DNA from: Spirochaetota bacterium
GTDB lineage: Bacteria; Spirochaetota; UBA4802; JAGODF01
Assembly (NCBI GenBank): GCA_029974015.1
Contig: JARKUF010000009.1
Location: 1,167 to 65,166 of the forward strand
Length of the DNA stretch: 64,000 bases
Direction: 5' to 3'
Part shown: positions 3,532-47,968 of the stretch, piece after piece
How positions within the stretch are numbered: the stretch's first letter is position 1
Layout of the letters: each line of letters begins with the position of its first letter
Made by a program: the position numbers and the translations under genes
The notes under the pieces: generated by a model
What the model was told of the DNA's origin: nothing
The model's input: the letters and a program-made list of their open reading frames with translations, nothing else
The model's database searches: none

Positions 3532-3699
3532 GCGGGTGGTAAAAATACCCGCATGAACGACACTTCGTTAAGCAACCGCAAAAAACTGTATTTTCATCTC
3601 CCGGTCGCAGGCGGTTCTCAATAACTATTGACAAACAGACCAGGCATCCTTATACTTTCGTGAACTGAAGCTTTCAGCTTCGTGCGCCTGTTTTCATTT

Positions 3700-3821
3700 A
3701 AGGCAACCTCTAATAATCAGGTTTTCCCGCCCGCCTTCGGCGGGCGGGAAACCTTAGTCCTGAGTATGCCAGTAGTTACAATTTAAGGGAACCTCAAAAA
3801 ATTTAATTTTTAGAGGTCCCC
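3700..3821 (+). repeat. MITE-like intergenic repeat, copy 2 (full; TTCG-loop variant)
   Basis: aaggcaacctctaataatcagg-GTTTTCCCGCCCGCCTTCGGCGGGCGGGAAACC-ttagtcctgagtatgccagtagttacaattt-AAGGGAACCTCAAAAAATTTAATTTTTAGAGGTCCCC. It is flanked by TTAA/TTAA. Confidence 0.9.
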
Positions 3822-3896
3822 TTAAATGACATGCGCGGGGGCTGAAGGAGTTATCAACATCATCGCCGACAGTATTAACGAGGAGGTTTTTTAATC

Positions 3897-4127
3897 ATGG
3901 CAGACACATGGCTTACGTCACTCATCACAGACACGCCGCAGGCTGGCTTTGAGCTTGCCATCACCATGAGCCGCCGCGCCGTTAAGTACACCCAGCCGGA
4001 CGCGGCAGTCAGAGAGAAGCTTCGCCCCGTGTATTCTAACGACGCGGATTCGCTTATCGCCGCGTCTCAGGTTGTGGCCATCAATTTTCAAACCGTCGCC
4101 GCGGCCAATAACTACTGGCGCAAGTAA
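3897..4127 (+). CDS. hypothetical small protein (76 aa)
   Basis: Strong SD GAGGAGG 7 nt before the ATG. Followed by a stem-loop. No recognisable domain. Confidence 0.4.
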   Translation: MADTWLTSLITDTPQAGFELAITMSRRAVKYTQPDAAVREKLRPVYSNDADSLIAASQVVAINFQTVAAANNYWRK

Positions 4128-4135
4128 GAAAAACC

Positions 4136-4178
4136 ATCCGGCGGAAAGCCACACATGATGCGGCCTTCCGCCGGATTT
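4136..4178 (+). terminator. putative intrinsic terminator after the 76-aa ORF
   Basis: 11-bp perfect stem atccggcggaa / ttccgccggat with a 19-nt loop, followed by a short T-run (weak U-tract). Confidence 0.35.
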
Positions 4179-4240: not shown

Positions 4241-4873
4241 CTATCGGACTACCAGCCGGTCTTTTTTCATTAAATTCCACTGTTCCTGATACTCCATGAT
4301 ATAGGCCACCTTATCCACAAAATCCTCATCATAACCAAATCGTTCCAACAGATAAAATCCCATTTCAAGGCCCGATGTAATCCCACCCGCAGTGATGATC
4401 CTGCCGGTATCGACGACCCTATGTCTGTCGATCTCGCATTTCGGAGCGATTTTAGCCAGTCGGTCAATGGGTACAATCGGTTCACCCGGATCAGCGTTCT
4501 TGCGATTGGTTGCCTTAAGACCATCCAGAAGACCCAGTATGCCATAAACCCACGAGCCTGTACATACACTGACCAGCAGCGTTTTATCCGGCAGGCCTTT
4601 GACAAAAGCGTGCAGACGGCCATTGTGCATTTCCGCCCTTGAACCGATGCCCCCGGGAATTAAAAAGGCGTCCATATCCGGACATTGATCAAGGCTGTAA
4701 CGGGGGTTCACACTCAGATTTCCGGTAGCCATAACCGGGGCAAGGGAATCACCCACCAAAAACACATCCAGTTCCGGATCCATCCGCCGGGCGACGGCAA
4801 ATACCCCTATGGGACCCGCCCAGTCAATGACTTCCGCATTATTGTATATATAGATCCCCAATCTTTTGGCCAT
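4241..4873 (-). CDS. DJ-1/PfpI (ThiJ, isonitrile-hydratase-like) family protein (211 aa)
   Basis: SVCTGSWVYG nucleophile elbow and DJ-1/PfpI fold motifs. The start is refined to MAKRLGIYIY with SD GGGAGGA. The long in-frame upstream extension runs through repeat DNA. Confidence 0.8.
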   Translation of the reverse strand: MAKRLGIYIYNNAEVIDWAGPIGVFAVARRMDPELDVFLVGDSLAPVMATGNLSVNPRYSLDQCPDMDAFLIPGGIGSRAEMHNGRLHAFVKGLPDKTLLVSVCTGSWVYGILGLLDGLKATNRKNADPGEPIVPIDRLAKIAPKCEIDRHRVVDTGRIITAGGITSGLEMGFYLLERFGYDEDFVDKVAYIMEYQEQWNLMKKDRLVVR

Positions 4874-5008
4874 ATTGATCCTCCCTGTACCTAAATTATT
4901 GAATTGAAATTGATACGCGCTTCCTTTGAAGCAGGCGGGAGTATAGTAACCCGACCTATGTGTGTCAAGTTTATTTTTGTCATAAGGTGTTGGGTGTGGG
5001 TGTGATGT

Positions 5009-5090
5009 CCTTTCCTGGAAGAAAGAAAGCATCCAGGACACAAAGCCCGCGGTGGCACGCCGCGCATGCCGCAAAGCAAATTCAACTTCC
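5009..5090 (+). repeat. direct repeat DR-L (~85 nt) flanking the MNT/HEPN cassette
   Basis: cctttcctggaagaaagaaagcatccaggACACAAAGCCCGCGGTGGCACGCCGCGCATGCCGCAAAGCAAATTCAACTTCC. It is ~90% identical to 6531–6610 in its 53-nt core. Confidence 0.8.
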
Positions 5091-5348
5091 TGTAAAACTC
5101 TCGTCAGCATAACCTGCTCCTTGCATCGCAATATTCCACCGCCTGGCCCATCGCGCAATACGTCTTTTCTAAGATGGGCCAGGTTACAGGCTAAAAGAAC
5201 CACATGCGTTAAATCGCCGCTTTGAAAGTTTTTCAGAGTTGACAAATGTAGAAAAATAAGGCTGTGTTTTTCCATAAGTAAAGGACACCCGCAAAAACTC
5301 ATATGAGGGATCAAAAACAATATTTTTAAGGTCTCAAAATTTGTTATT

Positions 5349-5408
5349 GCTGACATACTCAGGAATTACAATTTCCCGCCTGCCTTCGGCGGGCGGGAAA
5401 TCTGAATT
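5349..5408 (-). repeat. MITE-like repeat, partial internal fragment (copy 3)
   Basis: tgacatactcaggaattacaa-TTTCCCGCCTGCCTTCGGCGGGCGGGAAA holds the core plus the GC hairpin. Both termini and the AT hairpin are missing. Confidence 0.7.
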
Positions 5409-5519
5409 TTGTGACTGCCCTAAACATTAAGGTTTCGCGGTCAACGGATTTTGGCCAATGCTGGAACGGCAATGTCGCTTCAGGGTAAAATAATAAAATG
5501 AAGCTGATGGTAGCGTACA

Positions 5520-5846
5520 ATGTCGAACGATGAAATAATACTAAAAACCGTGGATGCCCTGACGGCAGCCCTGGGGCTGCGTCTGAGGCGCATCGTTCTG
5601 TACGGGTCCATGGCGCGAGGCGACGCAGTCGCCGGTTCGGATATCGACTGTTTGGCCGTAGTCGACCGTATCGACAGCACCCTGCTGGACGCGCTGGACG
5701 AGACCGCGGCCTCCATGCTACTTTCGCATGGAGTGGTGTGCTCCTTCGTACCGGTGGCCGAGAAACATTACCGCAACGGCGAACACAACCCGCTTCTGGT
5801 AAACATTGAGCGTGAGGGCAGAGTGTTGTGGCCGAAAACGGCTTAA
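5520..5846 (+). CDS. minimal nucleotidyltransferase (MNT/MntA-type antitoxin), 108 aa
   Basis: LYGSMARGDAVAGSDIDCLAVVD = GS..RG....SDID nucleotidyltransferase signature. Confidence 0.85.
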   Translation: MSNDEIILKTVDALTAALGLRLRRIVLYGSMARGDAVAGSDIDCLAVVDRIDSTLLDALDETAASMLLSHGVVCSFVPVAEKHYRNGEHNPLLVNIEREGRVLWPKTA

Positions 5847-6238
5847 AGGCCCAGATAGAGGCCATGATGGATAAGGCGGCACGTTCGATCGAGGCGGCGC
5901 GTGCCCTGCTGAAGGGCGGCAACTCCGATTTCTCATCGTCCCGCAGCTATTATGCCGTGTTCTACGCCATTCAGGCGCTCCTGCTCACTAAGGGGTTGGT
6001 CTATTCAAAGCACGCCGGGGTCATTTCGGGATTTAGTGAACAATTCATACGCCCCGGCGACTTCCCCAGAGTGTATGCCAAATACATAAGCCGCCTCTTT
6101 CGCGAGCGCCACGCGGGCGATTATGATTTCGCGCACGCCATAACTGAGGAGGACGCAGCTGAAGACTTGCGAATAGCCACCGAGATGGTGGCGTCTATTG
6201 AAGCGTACCTGAGCGAACGGCATCTATTGAAGAATTAA
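5828..6238 (+). CDS. HEPN-domain protein (HepT-type toxin), 136 aa
   Basis: Rx4-6H motif (RLFRERH) in an all-helical protein. Overlaps the MNT gene by 19 nt (GTG start). An alternative ATG at 5864 has SD agagg. Confidence 0.75.
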   Translation: MAENGLKAQIEAMMDKAARSIEAARALLKGGNSDFSSSRSYYAVFYAIQALLLTKGLVYSKHAGVISGFSEQFIRPGDFPRVYAKYISRLFRERHAGDYDFAHAITEEDAAEDLRIATEMVASIEAYLSERHLLKN

Positions 6239-6530
6239 ATACCGCAGTGCATATTGAGAATACGATAAGCTGAATAAAACGGCATTCATTTCAAAACAAG
6301 GAGCTCTAATCCTGAAAGCAAACGCGACTGCAAAAACCTCTGTGGCAAATCCCCCCGCAACTACGGACACGGATGTCCGGTAATCCCGGTGGGCACAGGA
6401 TGTGCCTTCACCGGGCTACAGCCCCTCGCGGACGCTGAGTAGGGCGCAGCCCGTATCGAAGCGCGGCGCCTGAGCTAATGCGCGGGAGGGGCGTGGGGAG
6501 GGGGTCGCGTACCTCCTCCCCACAAATGCC

Positions 6531-6610
6531 CGTTCCTGGCAGGATGAAAGTAGCCAAAACACAAGGCCCGCGATGGCACGCCGCGCCTGCCGCAAAGCAA
6601 ACTCAACTCC
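6531..6610 (+). repeat. direct repeat DR-R (~85 nt) flanking the MNT/HEPN cassette
   Basis: ccgttcctggcaggatgaaagtagccaaaACACAAGGCCCGCGATGGCACGCCGCGCCTGCCGCAAAGCAAACTCAACTCC. Confidence 0.8.
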
Positions 6611-6760
6611 AATAAAACCACAAGCGGCAGATTCACGCCAGAATCACTGACAGCTTCAGGCTTAATTTCCCCGGGAAAGAACTACATCGAAAAAAAACGG
6701 ATGTAGCGCTGCATTTTTCTCGATAATTAAGCAAGAGACCCCTCTATCCTGGAGAATGCC

Positions 6761-6979
6761 ATGGAACAAGTACAAAGAAGTTTCAATTTTACCGTAACAC
6801 CGGCAAATCGCCCGATAAATGATGCCGCTTCAGCGGAGTCATTGAAAACCGGAAACGAATCAATCATCCTTGAAAAGAGCGTATGCCGGCTCCTCGATGA
6901 TTATGTTCGCCGTTACACTGATGATGAATCCATCATCGAATTAAAGGGAAAGCTCATCAGGTATATCAGAAGCATATAA
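6761..6979 (+). CDS. hypothetical small protein (72 aa)
   Basis: SD ggaga 7 nt upstream of the ATG. No recognisable domain. Confidence 0.3.
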   Translation: MEQVQRSFNFTVTPANRPINDAASAESLKTGNESIILEKSVCRLLDDYVRRYTDDESIIELKGKLIRYIRSI

Positions 6980-7039
6980 TGCGCGTTGAAAACAGCAGCA
7001 AATGCCCGCGTCAACCGGACCATCTCCTTTGATTTTGCG

Positions 7040-7068
7040 TTGACAGGGCCGACGCTCCGGATTATCTT
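7040..7068 (+). promoter_or_regulatory. putative sigma70-type promoter for the phosphohexomutase gene
   Basis: TTGACA, 17-nt spacer, TATCTT. It lies ~90 nt upstream of the ATG at 7161. Confidence 0.4.
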
Positions 7069-7160
7069 CGCGGCAGGCTAATGCGCGGGAAAGTCAAAAT
7101 TCCCCTGACGCCGTATGCCGCGGCCATCTTCCGCGGAAAAACCAGAAACGGAGCGACAAT

Positions 7161-8912
7161 ATGGACCCAATCATTCAGAAGCGCGTGGAAGAATGGACGC
7201 GCCCTCCCTTCGACGAAAACACCATAGGTGAGATAAAGGCCCTTGCAGAGGGAAATAACGTAAAGGAGCTCACTGAGCGCTTCCACGCCACACTTGAATT
7301 CGGCACCGGGGGACTCAGGGGGATACTGGGCGCCGGGACCAATAGAATGAACATTTACACGGTGGGTATGGCGGCCCAGGGGCTTGCGAACTACATAATA
7401 CGCATGGGACGCCAGGACAGCGGCGTCGTCATTGCCTGCGACTCGCGTCGCATGTCGGACCTCTTCCGAGACGAGACCGCCTCCATCATGGCGGGAAACG
7501 GCATCAGGGCCTATGTCTTCGACGACATCACCCCGACGCCCCTTTGCTCATATGCCATACGAAAGCTTAATGCCGTCTCCGGCGTGGTTATCACGGCAAG
7601 CCACAATCCGCCTGAATACAATGGCTTTAAAGCGTATTGGGACGACGGCGGCCAGGTGGTGCCGCCCCATGATAAAGCCATCATCGGCGAGGTGAACGCC
7701 ATCGAGTCCATCGCGCACATAAAAAAGATGGATTTCGAAGAAGGTAAAAAACGCGGACTCATTACCATAATCGGAGATGATATACGCGGCGCCTATCTTG
7801 CCGAGCTCGAAAAAAAGGCCCTGAGAAAGCCCGGCAATTCCGGCATCAAAATAGTCTACTCCCCCCTGCACGGCACTGGGTATCGCATTGTTCCTGAAGT
7901 CCTCTCTCATTTCGGGTTCAAAAATGTTTTCCCGGTAAAGGAACAATCAATTCCGGACGGAAAATTCCCCACTGTGAAATATCCGAACCCCGAAGAGCGG
8001 GCGGCCCTGGAAATGTCCCTGACCCTTGCCCGTGAGACGGGCGCCGACATCATCCTCGCCACGGACCCCGACGCCGACCGAATGGGCGTGGGCTTCCGAG
8101 ACGAAAAAGGCGACTACATCCTCATCAACGGCAACCAGATCGGCACGATGCTGGAGTACTATCTCCTGAAACGCCTCTCCGAAGAAAACCGTCTCCCGGA
8201 AGACGCCGCCGTCATCAAGACAATAGTCACGACGGACCTCCAGGAGGAAATAGCGAAGTCTTTCGGATGCAGGACCGAAAACGTGCTTACGGGCTTCAAA
8301 TGGATTGCCATGAAAATGAAGGAATACGAAGAGAATGGGGGCGGCTCTTTTGTTTTCGGCGGCGAGGAAAGCTACGGATACCTTCCCGTGGACTTCGTGC
8401 GGGACAAGGACGCCGTTAGCGCCTGCTACTTTTTCGCCGAGATGACCGACTGGCTCCAGAGTAAAGGTTTAACGCTGAACGACTTTTTGAATGAAATATA
8501 TCTGAAGCACCACCTCTACCTTGAGGACCTCCACTCCCTCACCCTCAAGGGCCTTGAGGGAATGGAAAAGATAGGCGCCATCATGGACTCCTTTCGCGCA
8601 GCCCCCCCGAAGGAATTCGCGGGAACACCGGTGACCTGCGTCTCCGATATCAAGTCCCTGACAATGAAAGACCTTAAATCGGGCGGAGAGTTCCCAATGG
8701 AAGGCCTGCCGAAATCGGACGTACTCCAGTTTTTCCTTGAGGACGGCGCAAAGATAACCATGCGCCCATCGGGCACGGAACCGAAAATCAAGTTCTATTT
8801 CAGCGTAAAGGAGAAGGTGGACGCCTCCGGCATCGCAGAGGGCAAGCAATCGTTGAAAAAAAAGATCGAAATGTACAGGGCGTCCCTTCTGGAGAAGGTC
8901 CAGGGGCTGTAA
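7161..8912 (+). CDS. pgm: alpha-D-phosphohexomutase (phosphoglucomutase/phosphomannomutase), 583 aa
   Basis: Active-site TASHNPPEYNGFK (phosphoserine loop); GEESYG sugar-binding loop. Confidence 0.9.
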   Translation: MDPIIQKRVEEWTRPPFDENTIGEIKALAEGNNVKELTERFHATLEFGTGGLRGILGAGTNRMNIYTVGMAAQGLANYIIRMGRQDSGVVIACDSRRMSDLFRDETASIMAGNGIRAYVFDDITPTPLCSYAIRKLNAVSGVVITASHNPPEYNGFKAYWDDGGQVVPPHDKAIIGEVNAIESIAHIKKMDFEEGKKRGLITIIGDDIRGAYLAELEKKALRKPGNSGIKIVYSPLHGTGYRIVPEVLSHFGFKNVFPVKEQSIPDGKFPTVKYPNPEERAALEMSLTLARETGADIILATDPDADRMGVGFRDEKGDYILINGNQIGTMLEYYLLKRLSEENRLPEDAAVIKTIVTTDLQEEIAKSFGCRTENVLTGFKWIAMKMKEYEENGGGSFVFGGEESYGYLPVDFVRDKDAVSACYFFAEMTDWLQSKGLTLNDFLNEIYLKHHLYLEDLHSLTLKGLEGMEKIGAIMDSFRAAPPKEFAGTPVTCVSDIKSLTMKDLKSGGEFPMEGLPKSDVLQFFLEDGAKITMRPSGTEPKIKFYFSVKEKVDASGIAEGKQSLKKKIEMYRASLLEKVQGL

Positions 8913-26946: not shown

Positions 26947-27068
26947 AGGCAACTTCTAATGCTTATGTTTCTCCGCCCTCCAAGGGGGGGCGGAAAAAAC
27001 TAAGCCTCGAGTTTTTCATTAGCTTCAATCCATGGAAACTTAAAAAAATTAATTTTTTAAAGGTTCCC
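26947..27068 (+). repeat. MITE-like repeat, diverged copy 4, 12 nt downstream of tRNA-Pro
   Basis: aggcaacttctaat..-TTTCTCCGCCCTCCAAGGGGGGGCGGAAAAAA-...-GGAAACTTAAAAAAATTAATTTTTTAAAGGTTCCC. Same module order, with a degenerate GC hairpin. Confidence 0.7.
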
Positions 27069-34380: not shown

Positions 34381-34500
34381 GGGAACCTCTAAAAATCAAT
34401 TTTTCGAGGTTTCCATAAATTGTAACTGCTGGCATACTCAGGACTTCGGTTTTCCCGCCCGCCGAAGGCGGGCGGGAAAACCTGATTATTAGAGGTTGCC
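34381..34500 (-). repeat. MITE-like repeat, copy 5 (full, reverse orientation)
   Basis: GGGAACCTCTAAAAATCAATTTTTCGAGGTTTCC-ataaattgtaactgctggcatactcaggact-TCGGTTTTCCCGCCCGCCGAAGGCGGGCGGGAAAACC-tgattattagaggttgcc. Confidence 0.9.
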
Positions 34501-44191: not shown

Positions 44192-44324
44192 GGGGAACCT
44201 CAAAAAATTATTTTTTTGAGGTTCCCATCGACTGTAACAACAGGTATAACTACTGGCATACTAAGGGCTTGGGTTTTCCCGCCCGCCGAAGGCGGGCGGG
44301 AAAACCCAAGTATTAGAGATTGCC
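44192..44324 (-). repeat. MITE-like repeat, copy 6 (full, reverse orientation)
   Basis: GGGGAACCTCAAAAAATTATTTTTTTGAGGTTCCC-atcgactgtaacaacaggtataactactggcatactaagggcttgg-GTTTTCCCGCCCGCCGAAGGCGGGCGGGAAAAC-ccaagtattagagattgcc. It is flanked by TATG/TATG. Confidence 0.9.
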
Positions 44325-46758: not shown

Positions 46759-46811
46759 TGTTGACACCACCCTTGCCTGCGAAGCCAAATCGGTACAGAA
46801 TTTTGATTTTT

Positions 46812-46894
46812 GGCAGCCTCTAATTGCATGGTTTTCCCGCCCGCCGAAGGCAGACAGAAAAACCCAGGTGCCGAGTCTGTCAGTAATTACAATT
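46812..46894 (+). repeat. MITE-like repeat, partial copy 7 (left TIR, half-degenerate GC hairpin, core; no AT hairpin)
   Basis: ggcagcctctaattgcatgg-TTTTCCCGCCCGCCGAAGGCAGACAGAAAAA-cccaggtgccgagtctgtcagtaattacaatt. Confidence 0.75.
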
Positions 46895-46944
46895 ATTGTT
46901 CAAAACTGGGCCAATATGTCAAATATTTTCCATGATGATCAGAT

Positions 46945-47624: not shown

Positions 47625-47706
47625 AAGGCAACCTCAAATTATTAGGTTTTTCCGCCTTCCGAAGGGGGACAGAAATATCTAAGTCCTGAGTCTGCCAGCA
47701 GTTACA
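47625..47706 (+). repeat. MITE-like repeat, diverged partial copy 8
   Basis: aaggcaacctcaaattattagg-TTTTTCCGCCTTCCGAAGGGGGACAGAAA-tatctaagtcctgagtctgccagcagttacag. Confidence 0.65.
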
Positions 47707-47814
47707 GATCATCCGAATTATAAAGAGCCAAACTTTAAAAGAACCCTTAACTCAAAAAAATTTTAAACTTCAGTCCGATTTTACGTATTAATTACGTGAC
47801 AGAATGCATAATTG

Positions 47815-47849
47815 CAAGGGGAAACCCAAGTCCTGTGTTTGTCAGTAGT
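47815..47849 (+). repeat. MITE-like repeat fragment (core only), directly abutting copy 9
   Basis: aagggGAAACCCAAGTCCTGTGTTTGTCAGTAGT is the 3' half of the GC hairpin plus the core. It is truncated where the next copy begins. Confidence 0.6.
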
Positions 47850-47968
47850 GGCAACCTCTAATAATTAGATTTACCCTCCCGCCTTCGGCGGGCGGGTAAA
47901 TCTAAGTCCTGAGTATGCCAGTATTAACAAATCATGCGAATCTCAAAAATTAATTTTTAGAGGTCCCC
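47850..47968 (+). repeat. MITE-like repeat, copy 9 (full; TTCG-loop variant)
   Basis: ggcaacctctaataattaga-TTTACCCTCCCGCCTTCGGCGGGCGGGTAAATC-taagtcctgagtatgccagtattaacaaatcatgcgaatc-TCAAAAATTAATTTTTAGAGGTCCCC. Confidence 0.9.

Follow-up and report, generated by a model that had tools for sequence, protein, structure and literature searches.

An MNT-HEPN toxin-antitoxin module between two 94-nt direct repeats in a Spirochaetota genome: a candidate insertion with long target duplication

In a 64,000-nt stretch of a Spirochaetota bacterium genome (contig JARKUF010000009.1 of assembly GCA_029974015.1; hereafter the window, by whose positions all features are numbered), we analysed a 1.5-kb segment in which a toxin-antitoxin (TA) pair, made up of a minimal nucleotidyltransferase (MNT) gene and an overlapping HEPN gene, lies between two direct repeats. 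Judged by its sequence, the segment holds an intact class II HEPN/MNT module whose HEPN belongs to the AF0298-like HEPN-T family, and this module was clearly acquired horizontally. The two repeats may well represent a local target sequence that was duplicated when the TA module was inserted, rather than a dedicated recombination site, a reading that we hold with about even confidence. The features that carry the argument are the following.

5005-5098, plus strand: direct repeat copy 1, 94 nt (repeat search, pattern search, nhmmer, local alignment and blastn)
5431-6291, plus strand: horizontally shared TA unit, with a leader of ~89 nt, MNT, HEPN and a tail of ~53 nt (blastn to contigs L012, L013, L014 and L022)
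5520-5846, plus strand: MNT, predicted antitoxin (PF01909, PADLOC PDC-S09 and PDB 9xbd chain E)
5828-6238, plus strand: HEPN of the AF0298-like HEPN-T family, predicted toxin (PF05168, alignment of 29 homologues and PDB 9xbd/9xbc/2hsb)
6526-6618, plus strand: direct repeat copy 2, 93 nt (repeat search, pattern search, nhmmer and local alignment)

The bracketing repeats and their possible origins

An earlier note on this DNA had placed the repeats at 5009-5090 and 6531-6610, and both copies were present and proved slightly longer, with 83% identity between 5005-5098 and 6526-6618. Without gaps the match covered 83 nt at 84% identity, and one gap extended it to the full 94/93 nt at 83%. Comparison of the 1.5-kb flanks of the gene pair by blastn recovered the match at E=5e-23, and similarity past the repeat ends was not significant, since 22/300 and 237/300 shuffles scored as well. 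The core pattern matched exactly twice in the window, where none was expected from 100 shuffles, and an nhmmer profile of the repeat found only the two copies in 64 kb (E 5e-28 and 6e-27), with the next match at E=0.9. The search for additional copies that the note had called for gave these two in the window and none in another 12 kb of this genome.

Beyond this genome, exact-core scans of three collections (genome_contigs, metagenome_contigs and viral_contigs) found no repeat core, and the seven metagenome matches to a shorter second core were all rejected as chance matches of a 20-mer only. The repeat was also absent from contigs L012-L014 and from all 50 genome loci with HEPN homologues (L022-L071). 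A dispersed repeat was rejected, as the pattern search with three mismatches, the whole-window repeat search and nhmmer all gave two copies. The absence of the repeat elsewhere indicated that it is neither dispersed nor carried by the TA unit and is private to this locus.

For restriction-modification (RM) systems, Furuta et al. (2010; PMC2853133) required an insert of <20 kb, a duplication of >30 bp, no other mobile element and a repeat unique in the genome, and found flanking repeats to be significantly commoner around RM genes than around average genes. In the window, 1427 nt separate the repeats and contain a complete addiction unit, whose MNT and HEPN genes are the sole supported open reading frames (ORFs) between them. 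The 94-nt repeat is unique within the 64-kb window and the further 12 kb, with no core in the three collections. The segment, the ~4 kb to its left and the ~12 kb to its right (ORFs to ~19 kb) yielded no recombinase or transposase domain.

We then compared, at each homologous locus, the 1.5-kb flank upstream of MNT with the flank of equal length downstream of HEPN, counting same-strand matches with E<1e-4; the sample comprised the 50 loci L022-L071, with one genome per species, and 42 of them were testable. A significant bracketing direct repeat was present at 9/42 loci, with two more just outside the criteria, compared with 2/71 shifted positions in the same loci (Fisher's exact test, p=0.002) and 4/175 positions tiled over all loci and the window, two of which were copies of a miniature inverted-repeat transposable element (MITE). 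These bracketing repeats were 32-293 nt long and 74-96% identical, differed from locus to locus and were not TA genes, and the downstream copy usually began 15-65 nt past the HEPN stop codon. Four examples are listed here.

L058, 1414-1484 and 2213-2283: UbiD-family gene, whose last 23 codons recur as an orphan downstream of the TA pair
L059, 1395-1614 and 3065-3280: last ~72 codons of a methyltransferase-family gene, repeated across the TA pair on its far side
L024, 5216-5508 and 6447-6723: first ~97 codons of the neighbouring gene, on both sides of the TA pair
L063, 3411-3504 and 4398-4491: bracketing repeat

At L069, two MarR-like paralogues flank the TA pair, and at L050 a promoter-like 35-mer stands before each of two tandem TA units and again after the second. 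Target duplication at the window locus was favoured because the repeats form a unique, sharply bounded pair whose core is absent from the collections and the 50 loci, because no recombinase or transposase was found nearby and homologous loci are bracketed more often than either set of control positions, and because one of the copies at each of L058 and L059 is an orphan 3′ fragment of the adjacent gene.

If a target duplication did take place, the horizontally acquired module would have arrived as, or within, a piece of DNA inserted between a DJ-1 gene on the left and the operon of a 72-amino-acid (72-aa) ORF and pgm on the right. The local target sequence would have been duplicated at insertion to give the two 94-nt repeats, which would then have diverged to their present identity, and a MITE (5305-5425), perhaps with a GC-rich hairpin element as well, would have been added later. 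A plausible ancestral state is a divergent intergenic region of 367 nt, with the order DJ-1 gene, 131 nt, one repeat, 142 nt and 72-aa ORF. Of the two mechanisms offered in the earlier note, a recombination-mediated insertion stays viable in the form of an insertion with long target duplication, where the duplication is deduced from the repeats and no empty site was found.

A number of observations weigh against target duplication. The shared unit stops short of the repeats, 332 nt inward of copy 1 and 234 nt inward of copy 2; this implies either that the insert carried extra DNA or that the repeats are unrelated to the arrival of the TA pair, and once the MITE and the GC-rich element are set aside, ~206 nt on the left and ~49 nt on the right remain unexplained. 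At 83%, the identity of the repeats is far below the 93-100% of documented RM cases. Moreover, 11/13 substitutions lie within the first 48 nt and the 3′ 46 nt carry two or three, which suggests constraint on a 3′ core or gene conversion and not simple neutral decay. The repeats at other loci are clearly heterogeneous, and their enrichment has more than one cause. An empty site, in which a single repeat would connect the DJ-1 gene with the 72-aa ORF, was not found among the relatives, the closest of which are 78% identical in pgm and differ in the region upstream of it, and no published demonstration of toxicity or AMPylation was found for class II pairs.

The uneven substitutions could alternatively mean that one repeat copy came from the donor, by homology-facilitated illegitimate recombination, so that a donor-derived and a native copy were already diverged on arrival. 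Such an origin would account for the low repeat identity despite intact TA genes, and it fits the other loci, whose duplicates cluster at 81-90% identity with one copy on an intact neighbouring gene and the other an orphan; most long target duplications of RM systems are from naturally competent species (PMC2853133). However, no donor sequence with the repeat was found in the collections or loci searched, the closest TA units occupy an altogether different setting, and we consider this origin rather unlikely.

A further explanation, which we judge to be improbable to a similar degree, is that the repeat is a cis element (an operator, an upstream activating site or a small RNA) placed before transcription units, and that its bracketing of the TA pair is incidental. 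In the plus sense it precedes both the TA operon and the operon of the 72-aa ORF and pgm, and in the minus sense the DJ-1 gene; both copies lie 131-142 nt from the start of the flanking gene, and a strong promoter-like site of the DJ-1 gene lies 37 nt from the end of copy 1. The paucity of substitutions in the 3′ 46 nt looks as if a core were constrained in both copies, and the repeats at L050 and perhaps L063 are promoter-like leaders. Against a cis element, neither the homologue of the 72-aa ORF nor the DJ-1 homologues show conservation upstream, copy 1 is 421 nt from the MNT start and the TA unit has its own conserved 89-nt leader. The RNA folds of the repeat were neither significant nor conserved (z = -0.3 to +1.4, with neither strand better than shuffled sequence), and no credible Rfam match was found in 4800-7200 at the gathering threshold or at E<=10; a search for tRNA or tmRNA found none.

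Other functions of the repeat were also tried and rejected. The TGGCAC...GC string of the core is unfit for a sigma-54 promoter, its GG-to-GC spacing missing by 2 nt in either direction. Each copy opens with an ATG and has no stop for 29-35 codons, but a small protein was discarded for lack of coding constraint; the 13 substitutions are spread over the codon positions as 4/5/4, with 4 synonymous and 9 non-synonymous. The repeat is not a DJ-1 upstream region, as DJ-1 homologues have only the coding sequence (CDS) in common, and it is not part of the TA unit, which is shared over 5431-6291 only.

The earlier note had also read the repeats as att-like sites of site-specific integration, and this claim went unsupported for want of a recombinase, a shared crossover core and an attC-like fold. 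Chromosomal integron arrays typically carry TA cassettes flanked by similar repeats. If the repeats were attC or attL/attR sites, the whole 1.5-kb segment would excise and integrate as a unit, and direct repeats of similar length do bracket a compact, addictive gene pair here. Against it stands, besides the lack of a recombinase gene in the segment and its flanks, the longest identical run between the copies, of only 14 nt. The repeats do not fold as imperfect palindromes: single-stranded DNA folds gave z = -1.5, +0.55, -0.55 and +0.06 with no end-to-end pairing, and no RYYYAAC...GTTRRRY pair was found in attC order in the repeats. An integron cassette was rejected on the missing palindrome, the presence of only two copies in 64 kb and the lack of an integrase among the neighbours examined. 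An attL/attR element was rejected on the missing identical core and on L012-L014 and L022, where the TA unit stands without the repeat at four other sites and the homology to the window ends well inside the repeats. With the core also missing from all collections scanned, we regard an att-like origin as the least probable of the explanations.

The hexamer CCACAA stands directly before copy 2 (6520-6525) and directly after it (6618-6623), resembling a 6-nt target-site duplication, and nothing comparable occurs at copy 1. A tiny non-autonomous mobile element that landed twice in a variable patch, independently of the TA pair, would agree with this hexamer, with the sharp repeat ends and with the MITE that the patch also received. 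It would have to have done so as an element with two copies in 64 kb, none in the further 12 kb and no core match in public collections, and it lacks terminal inverted repeats and a flanking duplication at copy 1; we hold this to be very unlikely. Just before the GC-rich element, the 22 nt at 6315-6336 are 82% identical to the 3′ end of copy 2 (AAAGCAAAC.C.ACT.CAA); this stretch was rejected as the remnant of a third copy because the match was not statistically significant.

Class and origin of the MNT-HEPN module

The two genes exist as the earlier note had given them, MNT at 5520-5846 encoding 108 aa and HEPN at 5828-6238 encoding 136 aa from a GTG start, with an overlap of 19 nt. The GTG start is supported because HEPN homologues start at the same residue (MAENGL...) and because an identical 19-nt overlap was called in contigs L012-L014. 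MNT matched NTP_transf_2 (PF01909) at 30.2 bits against a Pfam cutoff of 21, and PADLOC PDC-S09 at E 4e-19. HEPN matched PF05168 at 67.2 bits against a cutoff of 22, which was its sole Pfam match at E<=0.01. Ratios of non-synonymous to synonymous substitution rates (dN/dS) of 0.11-0.43, at dS of 0.2-0.55 against the nearest homologues, indicated that both genes are kept by purifying selection.

The nucleotidyltransferase motif reported in MNT is indeed there, in the form GSX10DXD at residues 29-43 (G29 S30 ... D41 I42 D43). The string RLFRERH, put forward as the HEPN motif, is literally present as R89-x5-H95 but is not a motif of the family, as H95 is replaced by E or Q in many homologues. The HEPN sequence reads R89-LFRE-R94-H95-AGD-Y99 at this point, and the residues found invariant on alignment with 29 homologues were S38, Y41, Y42, A50, L53, H62, F69, F73, R94, D98 and Y99.

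Yao et al. (2020; PMC7641770) define class I by DUF86 or PF08780 together with PF01909, carrying RX4HXY and GSX10DXD, and class II by a PF05168 HEPN without RX4HXY; the same division was drawn by Makarova et al. (2009) as COG1669/COG2361 versus COG1708/COG2250. The pair had been described as canonical HepT/MntA, and this assignment had to be given up, as HEPN is PF05168 and MNT scores only 22.6 bits against the NCBIfam MntA equivalog NF047752, whose cutoff is 60. Neither DUF86 (PF01934) nor PF08780 was found in HEPN (Pfam, E<=0.01), and RX4HXY was absent from it on reading the sequence and the 29-homologue alignment. PF05168 and PF01909 both score above the gathering score in neighbouring, overlapping genes, as in class II. 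In AF0298-like HEPN-T proteins the motif histidine is usually lost and the arginine kept, and a second conserved histidine towards the N-terminus forms an alternative active site (Anantharaman et al. 2013; PMC3710099); here all 29 sequences keep R94 and H62, and they vary at H95.

HEPN is predicted to be an RNase that uses this alternative active site, with H62 plus the motif arginine R94. MNT is predicted to neutralise it, which may take place by nucleotidylylation of the invariant tyrosine Y99. We infer both the toxicity of HEPN and the chemistry of neutralisation from class I systems and from a lead in the PDB. The family profile of HEPN matched AF0298 (PDB 2hsb) at E=2e-13, and entries 9xbd and 9xbc scored more strongly. 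Entry 9xbd contains a homologous HEPN in complex with a nucleotidyltransferase, with four chains of each, and MNT matched this nucleotidyltransferase (chain E) at E=2e-7; entry 9xbc contains the same HEPN alone, and in it the residue aligned with Y99 is F and not Y. This Y-versus-F pair of structures hints that modification of the tyrosine is being tested in class II, and no accompanying paper was found.

The closest HEPN proteins, 87-93% identical, came from four contigs of Spirochaetota/'Leptospirales' metagenome-assembled genomes (MAGs) and from an anaerobic-digester metagenome contig. Two HEPN variants, P0341 and P0342, fall in the same 90%-identity cluster and occur on 49 and 45 contigs. 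By blastn, the unit extends over 5445-6291 in L013 (89.7%), 5431-6214 in L014 and L012 (82.9%) and 5449-6291 in L022 (89.5%). The idea that the repeats are the ends of the mobile unit was contradicted by these four contigs, which hold the same module and share only 5431/5449-6291 with the window, without repeats. In all four, the unit sits between DUF3780 and DUF1156 methyltransferase genes, downstream of a DUF499 ATPase gene, and L022:1168-6855 is a DUF499-centred 'Type-2 BREX-related'/Hma defence operon that holds the TA unit. In DUF499-centred Type-2 BREX-related/Hma systems, HEPN or HEPN-MNT genes embedded in this way have been described as backup effectors (PMC12839542).

Horizontal acquisition was read from these comparisons, because the HEPN relatives are 87-93% identical and the host pgm has none above 78%, because the same module sits in the DUF499 systems of L012-L014 and L022, and because synteny is lost upstream of the 72-aa ORF and the right flank of the gene for a hexameric tyrosine-coordinated haem protein (HTHP) differs in contig L011. 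No blastn match of 4874-7160 was found in PLSDB as a sign of plasmid origin, and no HEPN relative was found in IMG/VR as a sign of phage origin.

The variable patch around the module

The segment lies within a patch whose further features are given below.

4241-4873, minus strand: DJ-1/PfpI-family gene, left neighbour (Pfam PF01965)
4940-4968, minus strand: sigma-70-like promoter match upstream of the DJ-1 gene, TTGACA-17-TATACT (consensus scan 11/12, a pattern match only)
5305-5425, plus strand: full-length diverged MITE copy (alignment with copies 34381-34500 and 44193-44324)
6341-6525, no strand assigned: cluster of four to five GC-rich hairpins (GC content and minimum-free-energy folding)
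6761-6979, plus strand: 72-aa ORF (tblastn with 70-aa ORFs of L004 and L007)
7161-8912, plus strand: phosphoglucomutase/phosphomannomutase gene pgm, right neighbour (Pfam PGM_PMM I-IV)

The closest homologues of the DJ-1 protein (87-90% aa identity) are in MAGs of Syntrophobacterales, Dissulfurispiraceae, Nitrospirota and Thermodesulfobacteriota and not of Spirochaetota. Because these homologues belong to other phyla, the DJ-1 gene too was probably acquired horizontally. Its nucleotide homology to L072/L073 stops at the ends of the CDS (4251-4873), and in L072 the homologue comes after a TetR-family gene. On the right, the 72-aa ORF had no Pfam or NCBIfam match; related Spirochaetota carry a counterpart ahead of pgm, with 37-39% identity, and the ORF opens the native synteny in that direction. 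The pgm gene assigns the host to an uncultured Spirochaetota bacterium. Downstream of pgm, relatives keep the synteny of YbeY, a 7TM-HD protein, PhoH, AspRS, a permease and a beta-lactamase-family protein. Upstream of pgm, the three closest homologues (P0002, P0004 and P0005; 73-78% identity) have a flavodiiron gene, small ORFs and a methyltransferase gene, and none of three contigs with the exact pgm protein joins pgm to the DJ-1 gene.

The HTHP gene (PF11534, E=3e-39) lies at 3897-4127 and adjoins the patch. The ENA contig L011 is 99% identical to 3642-4154 of the window and diverges completely right after the HTHP gene, where L011:514-850 runs into another gene whose product starts MTTTLNQ...IGCGSIGQ, a Rossmann-type N-terminus. 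The right flank of the HTHP gene is therefore variable between close strains, and this divergence, the origin of the DJ-1 gene and the lost synteny together mark the interval from the HTHP gene to the 72-aa ORF as a variable patch.

A truncated MITE had been noted at 5349-5408. A MITE copy is indeed present there, but it is diverged and full-length at ~5305-5425, and 5349-5408 is its hairpin; the copy abuts the left end of the shared TA unit. The MITE-like family, of ~120 nt, combines an AT-rich palindrome (GGGAACCTC-A/T-GAGGTTCCC) with a GC hairpin (TTTCCCGCCCGCC-GAAG-GGCGGGCGGGAAA), and public assemblies of this organism tend to end at its copies. The window holds the following MITE-like copies.

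1120-1239
3701-3820
5305-5425
26947-27066
34381-34500
44193-44324
46811-46930
47626-47745
47849-47968

The GC-rich structured tail that had been reported at 6340-6520 was confirmed at 6341-6525, with a GC content of 0.64-0.67 and fold z-scores of -3.6 on the plus strand and -2.9 on the minus strand. It lies outside the shared TA unit, had no Rfam match better than E=0.68, and nothing similar to it turned up elsewhere in the window or among the loci that were fetched. One ENA contig terminates at 6340, right where this element starts, and two Logan contigs, which match the window at 100% identity for 9.7 and 12.4 kb, have their first base at 6543, within copy 2 and 17 nt from its edge. Since its copies share no 31-mer, the repeat cannot by itself be what broke the assembly graph, and the breaks at 6340/6543 reflect either loss of coverage across the GC-rich hairpins or polymorphism of 6341-6542.

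The DJ-1 reading frame (4241-5356, minus strand) stays open for 161 codons upstream of its well-supported ATG and ribosome-binding site at 4873, through copy 1 and into the MITE. The chance of such an open run is ~4e-4 for one frame, and the extension was used in the gene call of the Logan ORF P0352 (359 aa), which contains repeat copy 1 with an unchanged protein sequence, as would fit the same strain. The extension is not protein-like, and its repeat portion is without coding constraint.

Wider meaning and comparison with known systems

As a generalisation, which we offer tentatively and think doubtful on present counts, class II MNT-HEPN modules may spread from one chromosomal site to another without a recombinase and leave locus-specific target duplications of 30-300 nt, of which the window would be one rather old example. 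If so, long target duplication would be a general signature of the mobility or persistence of addiction modules and not a peculiarity of RM systems, and if a survey and empty-site comparisons confirmed it, the long-standing question of how TA systems move without a recombinase would become directly testable. Bracketing, which was seen at roughly a fifth of the homologous modules but at 2-3% of control positions, is a modest lead, and some of the repeats are orphan fragments of core genes. The module by itself adds little, as one more class II HEPN/MNT pair among the many in Spirochaetota MAGs. The occurrence of a near-identical unit free-standing here and embedded in DUF499/DUF3780/DUF1156 operons elsewhere defines a transferable unit of ~0.86 kb that includes the 89-nt leader.

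The module agrees with class II HEPN/MNT systems in its Pfam pair, the adjacency of the genes, the missing RX4HXY, the conserved arginine with an N-terminal histidine and GSX10DXD. Nothing essential differs, and an additional invariant D-Y follows the arginine here (R94-x3-D98-Y99). Class II pairs have been reported to be more prevalent in archaea and thermophiles (PMC7641770, PMC2701414), whereas the present module occurs in Spirochaetota MAGs. With type VII HepT/MntA systems of class I, such as Shewanella SO_3166/SO_3165, it has in common the MNT-first order with an overlapping HEPN, GSX10DXD, a conserved tyrosine near the HEPN motif arginine and a likely hetero-oligomeric complex, to judge from the four HEPN and four nucleotidyltransferase chains of its PDB relative 9xbd. 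It differs from them in having PF05168 in place of DUF86/PF01934 or PF08780, in lacking RX4HXY and in its MntA score of 22.6 against 60.

Set against DUF499-centred BREX-related (Hma/Type-2 BREX-related) effectors, the module has its closest relatives inside such a system, whereas in the window it stands alone, with no DUF499, DUF3780 or DUF1156 gene among the called or Pfam-scanned neighbours, which span ~4 kb on its left and ~12 kb on its right and either fall into different families or have no match. Like the cassettes of integrons and of clusters of attC sites lacking integron integrases (CALIN), it is a compact, possibly promoterless TA unit between repeats of ~60-140 nt; unlike them, it lacks an attC palindrome, properly ordered R''/R' boxes and an integrase, and its repeat has two copies only.

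The long target duplications of RM systems (Nobusato et al. 2000; Furuta et al. 2010) differ in their cargo, which here is a TA pair, and in repeat identity (83% here versus 93-100%), and they were defined by comparison with an empty site. In both, an addiction unit of <20 kb without a transposase or integrase lies between flanking repeats of >30 bp, and such flanking repeats are significantly commoner around these genes than at ordinary positions.

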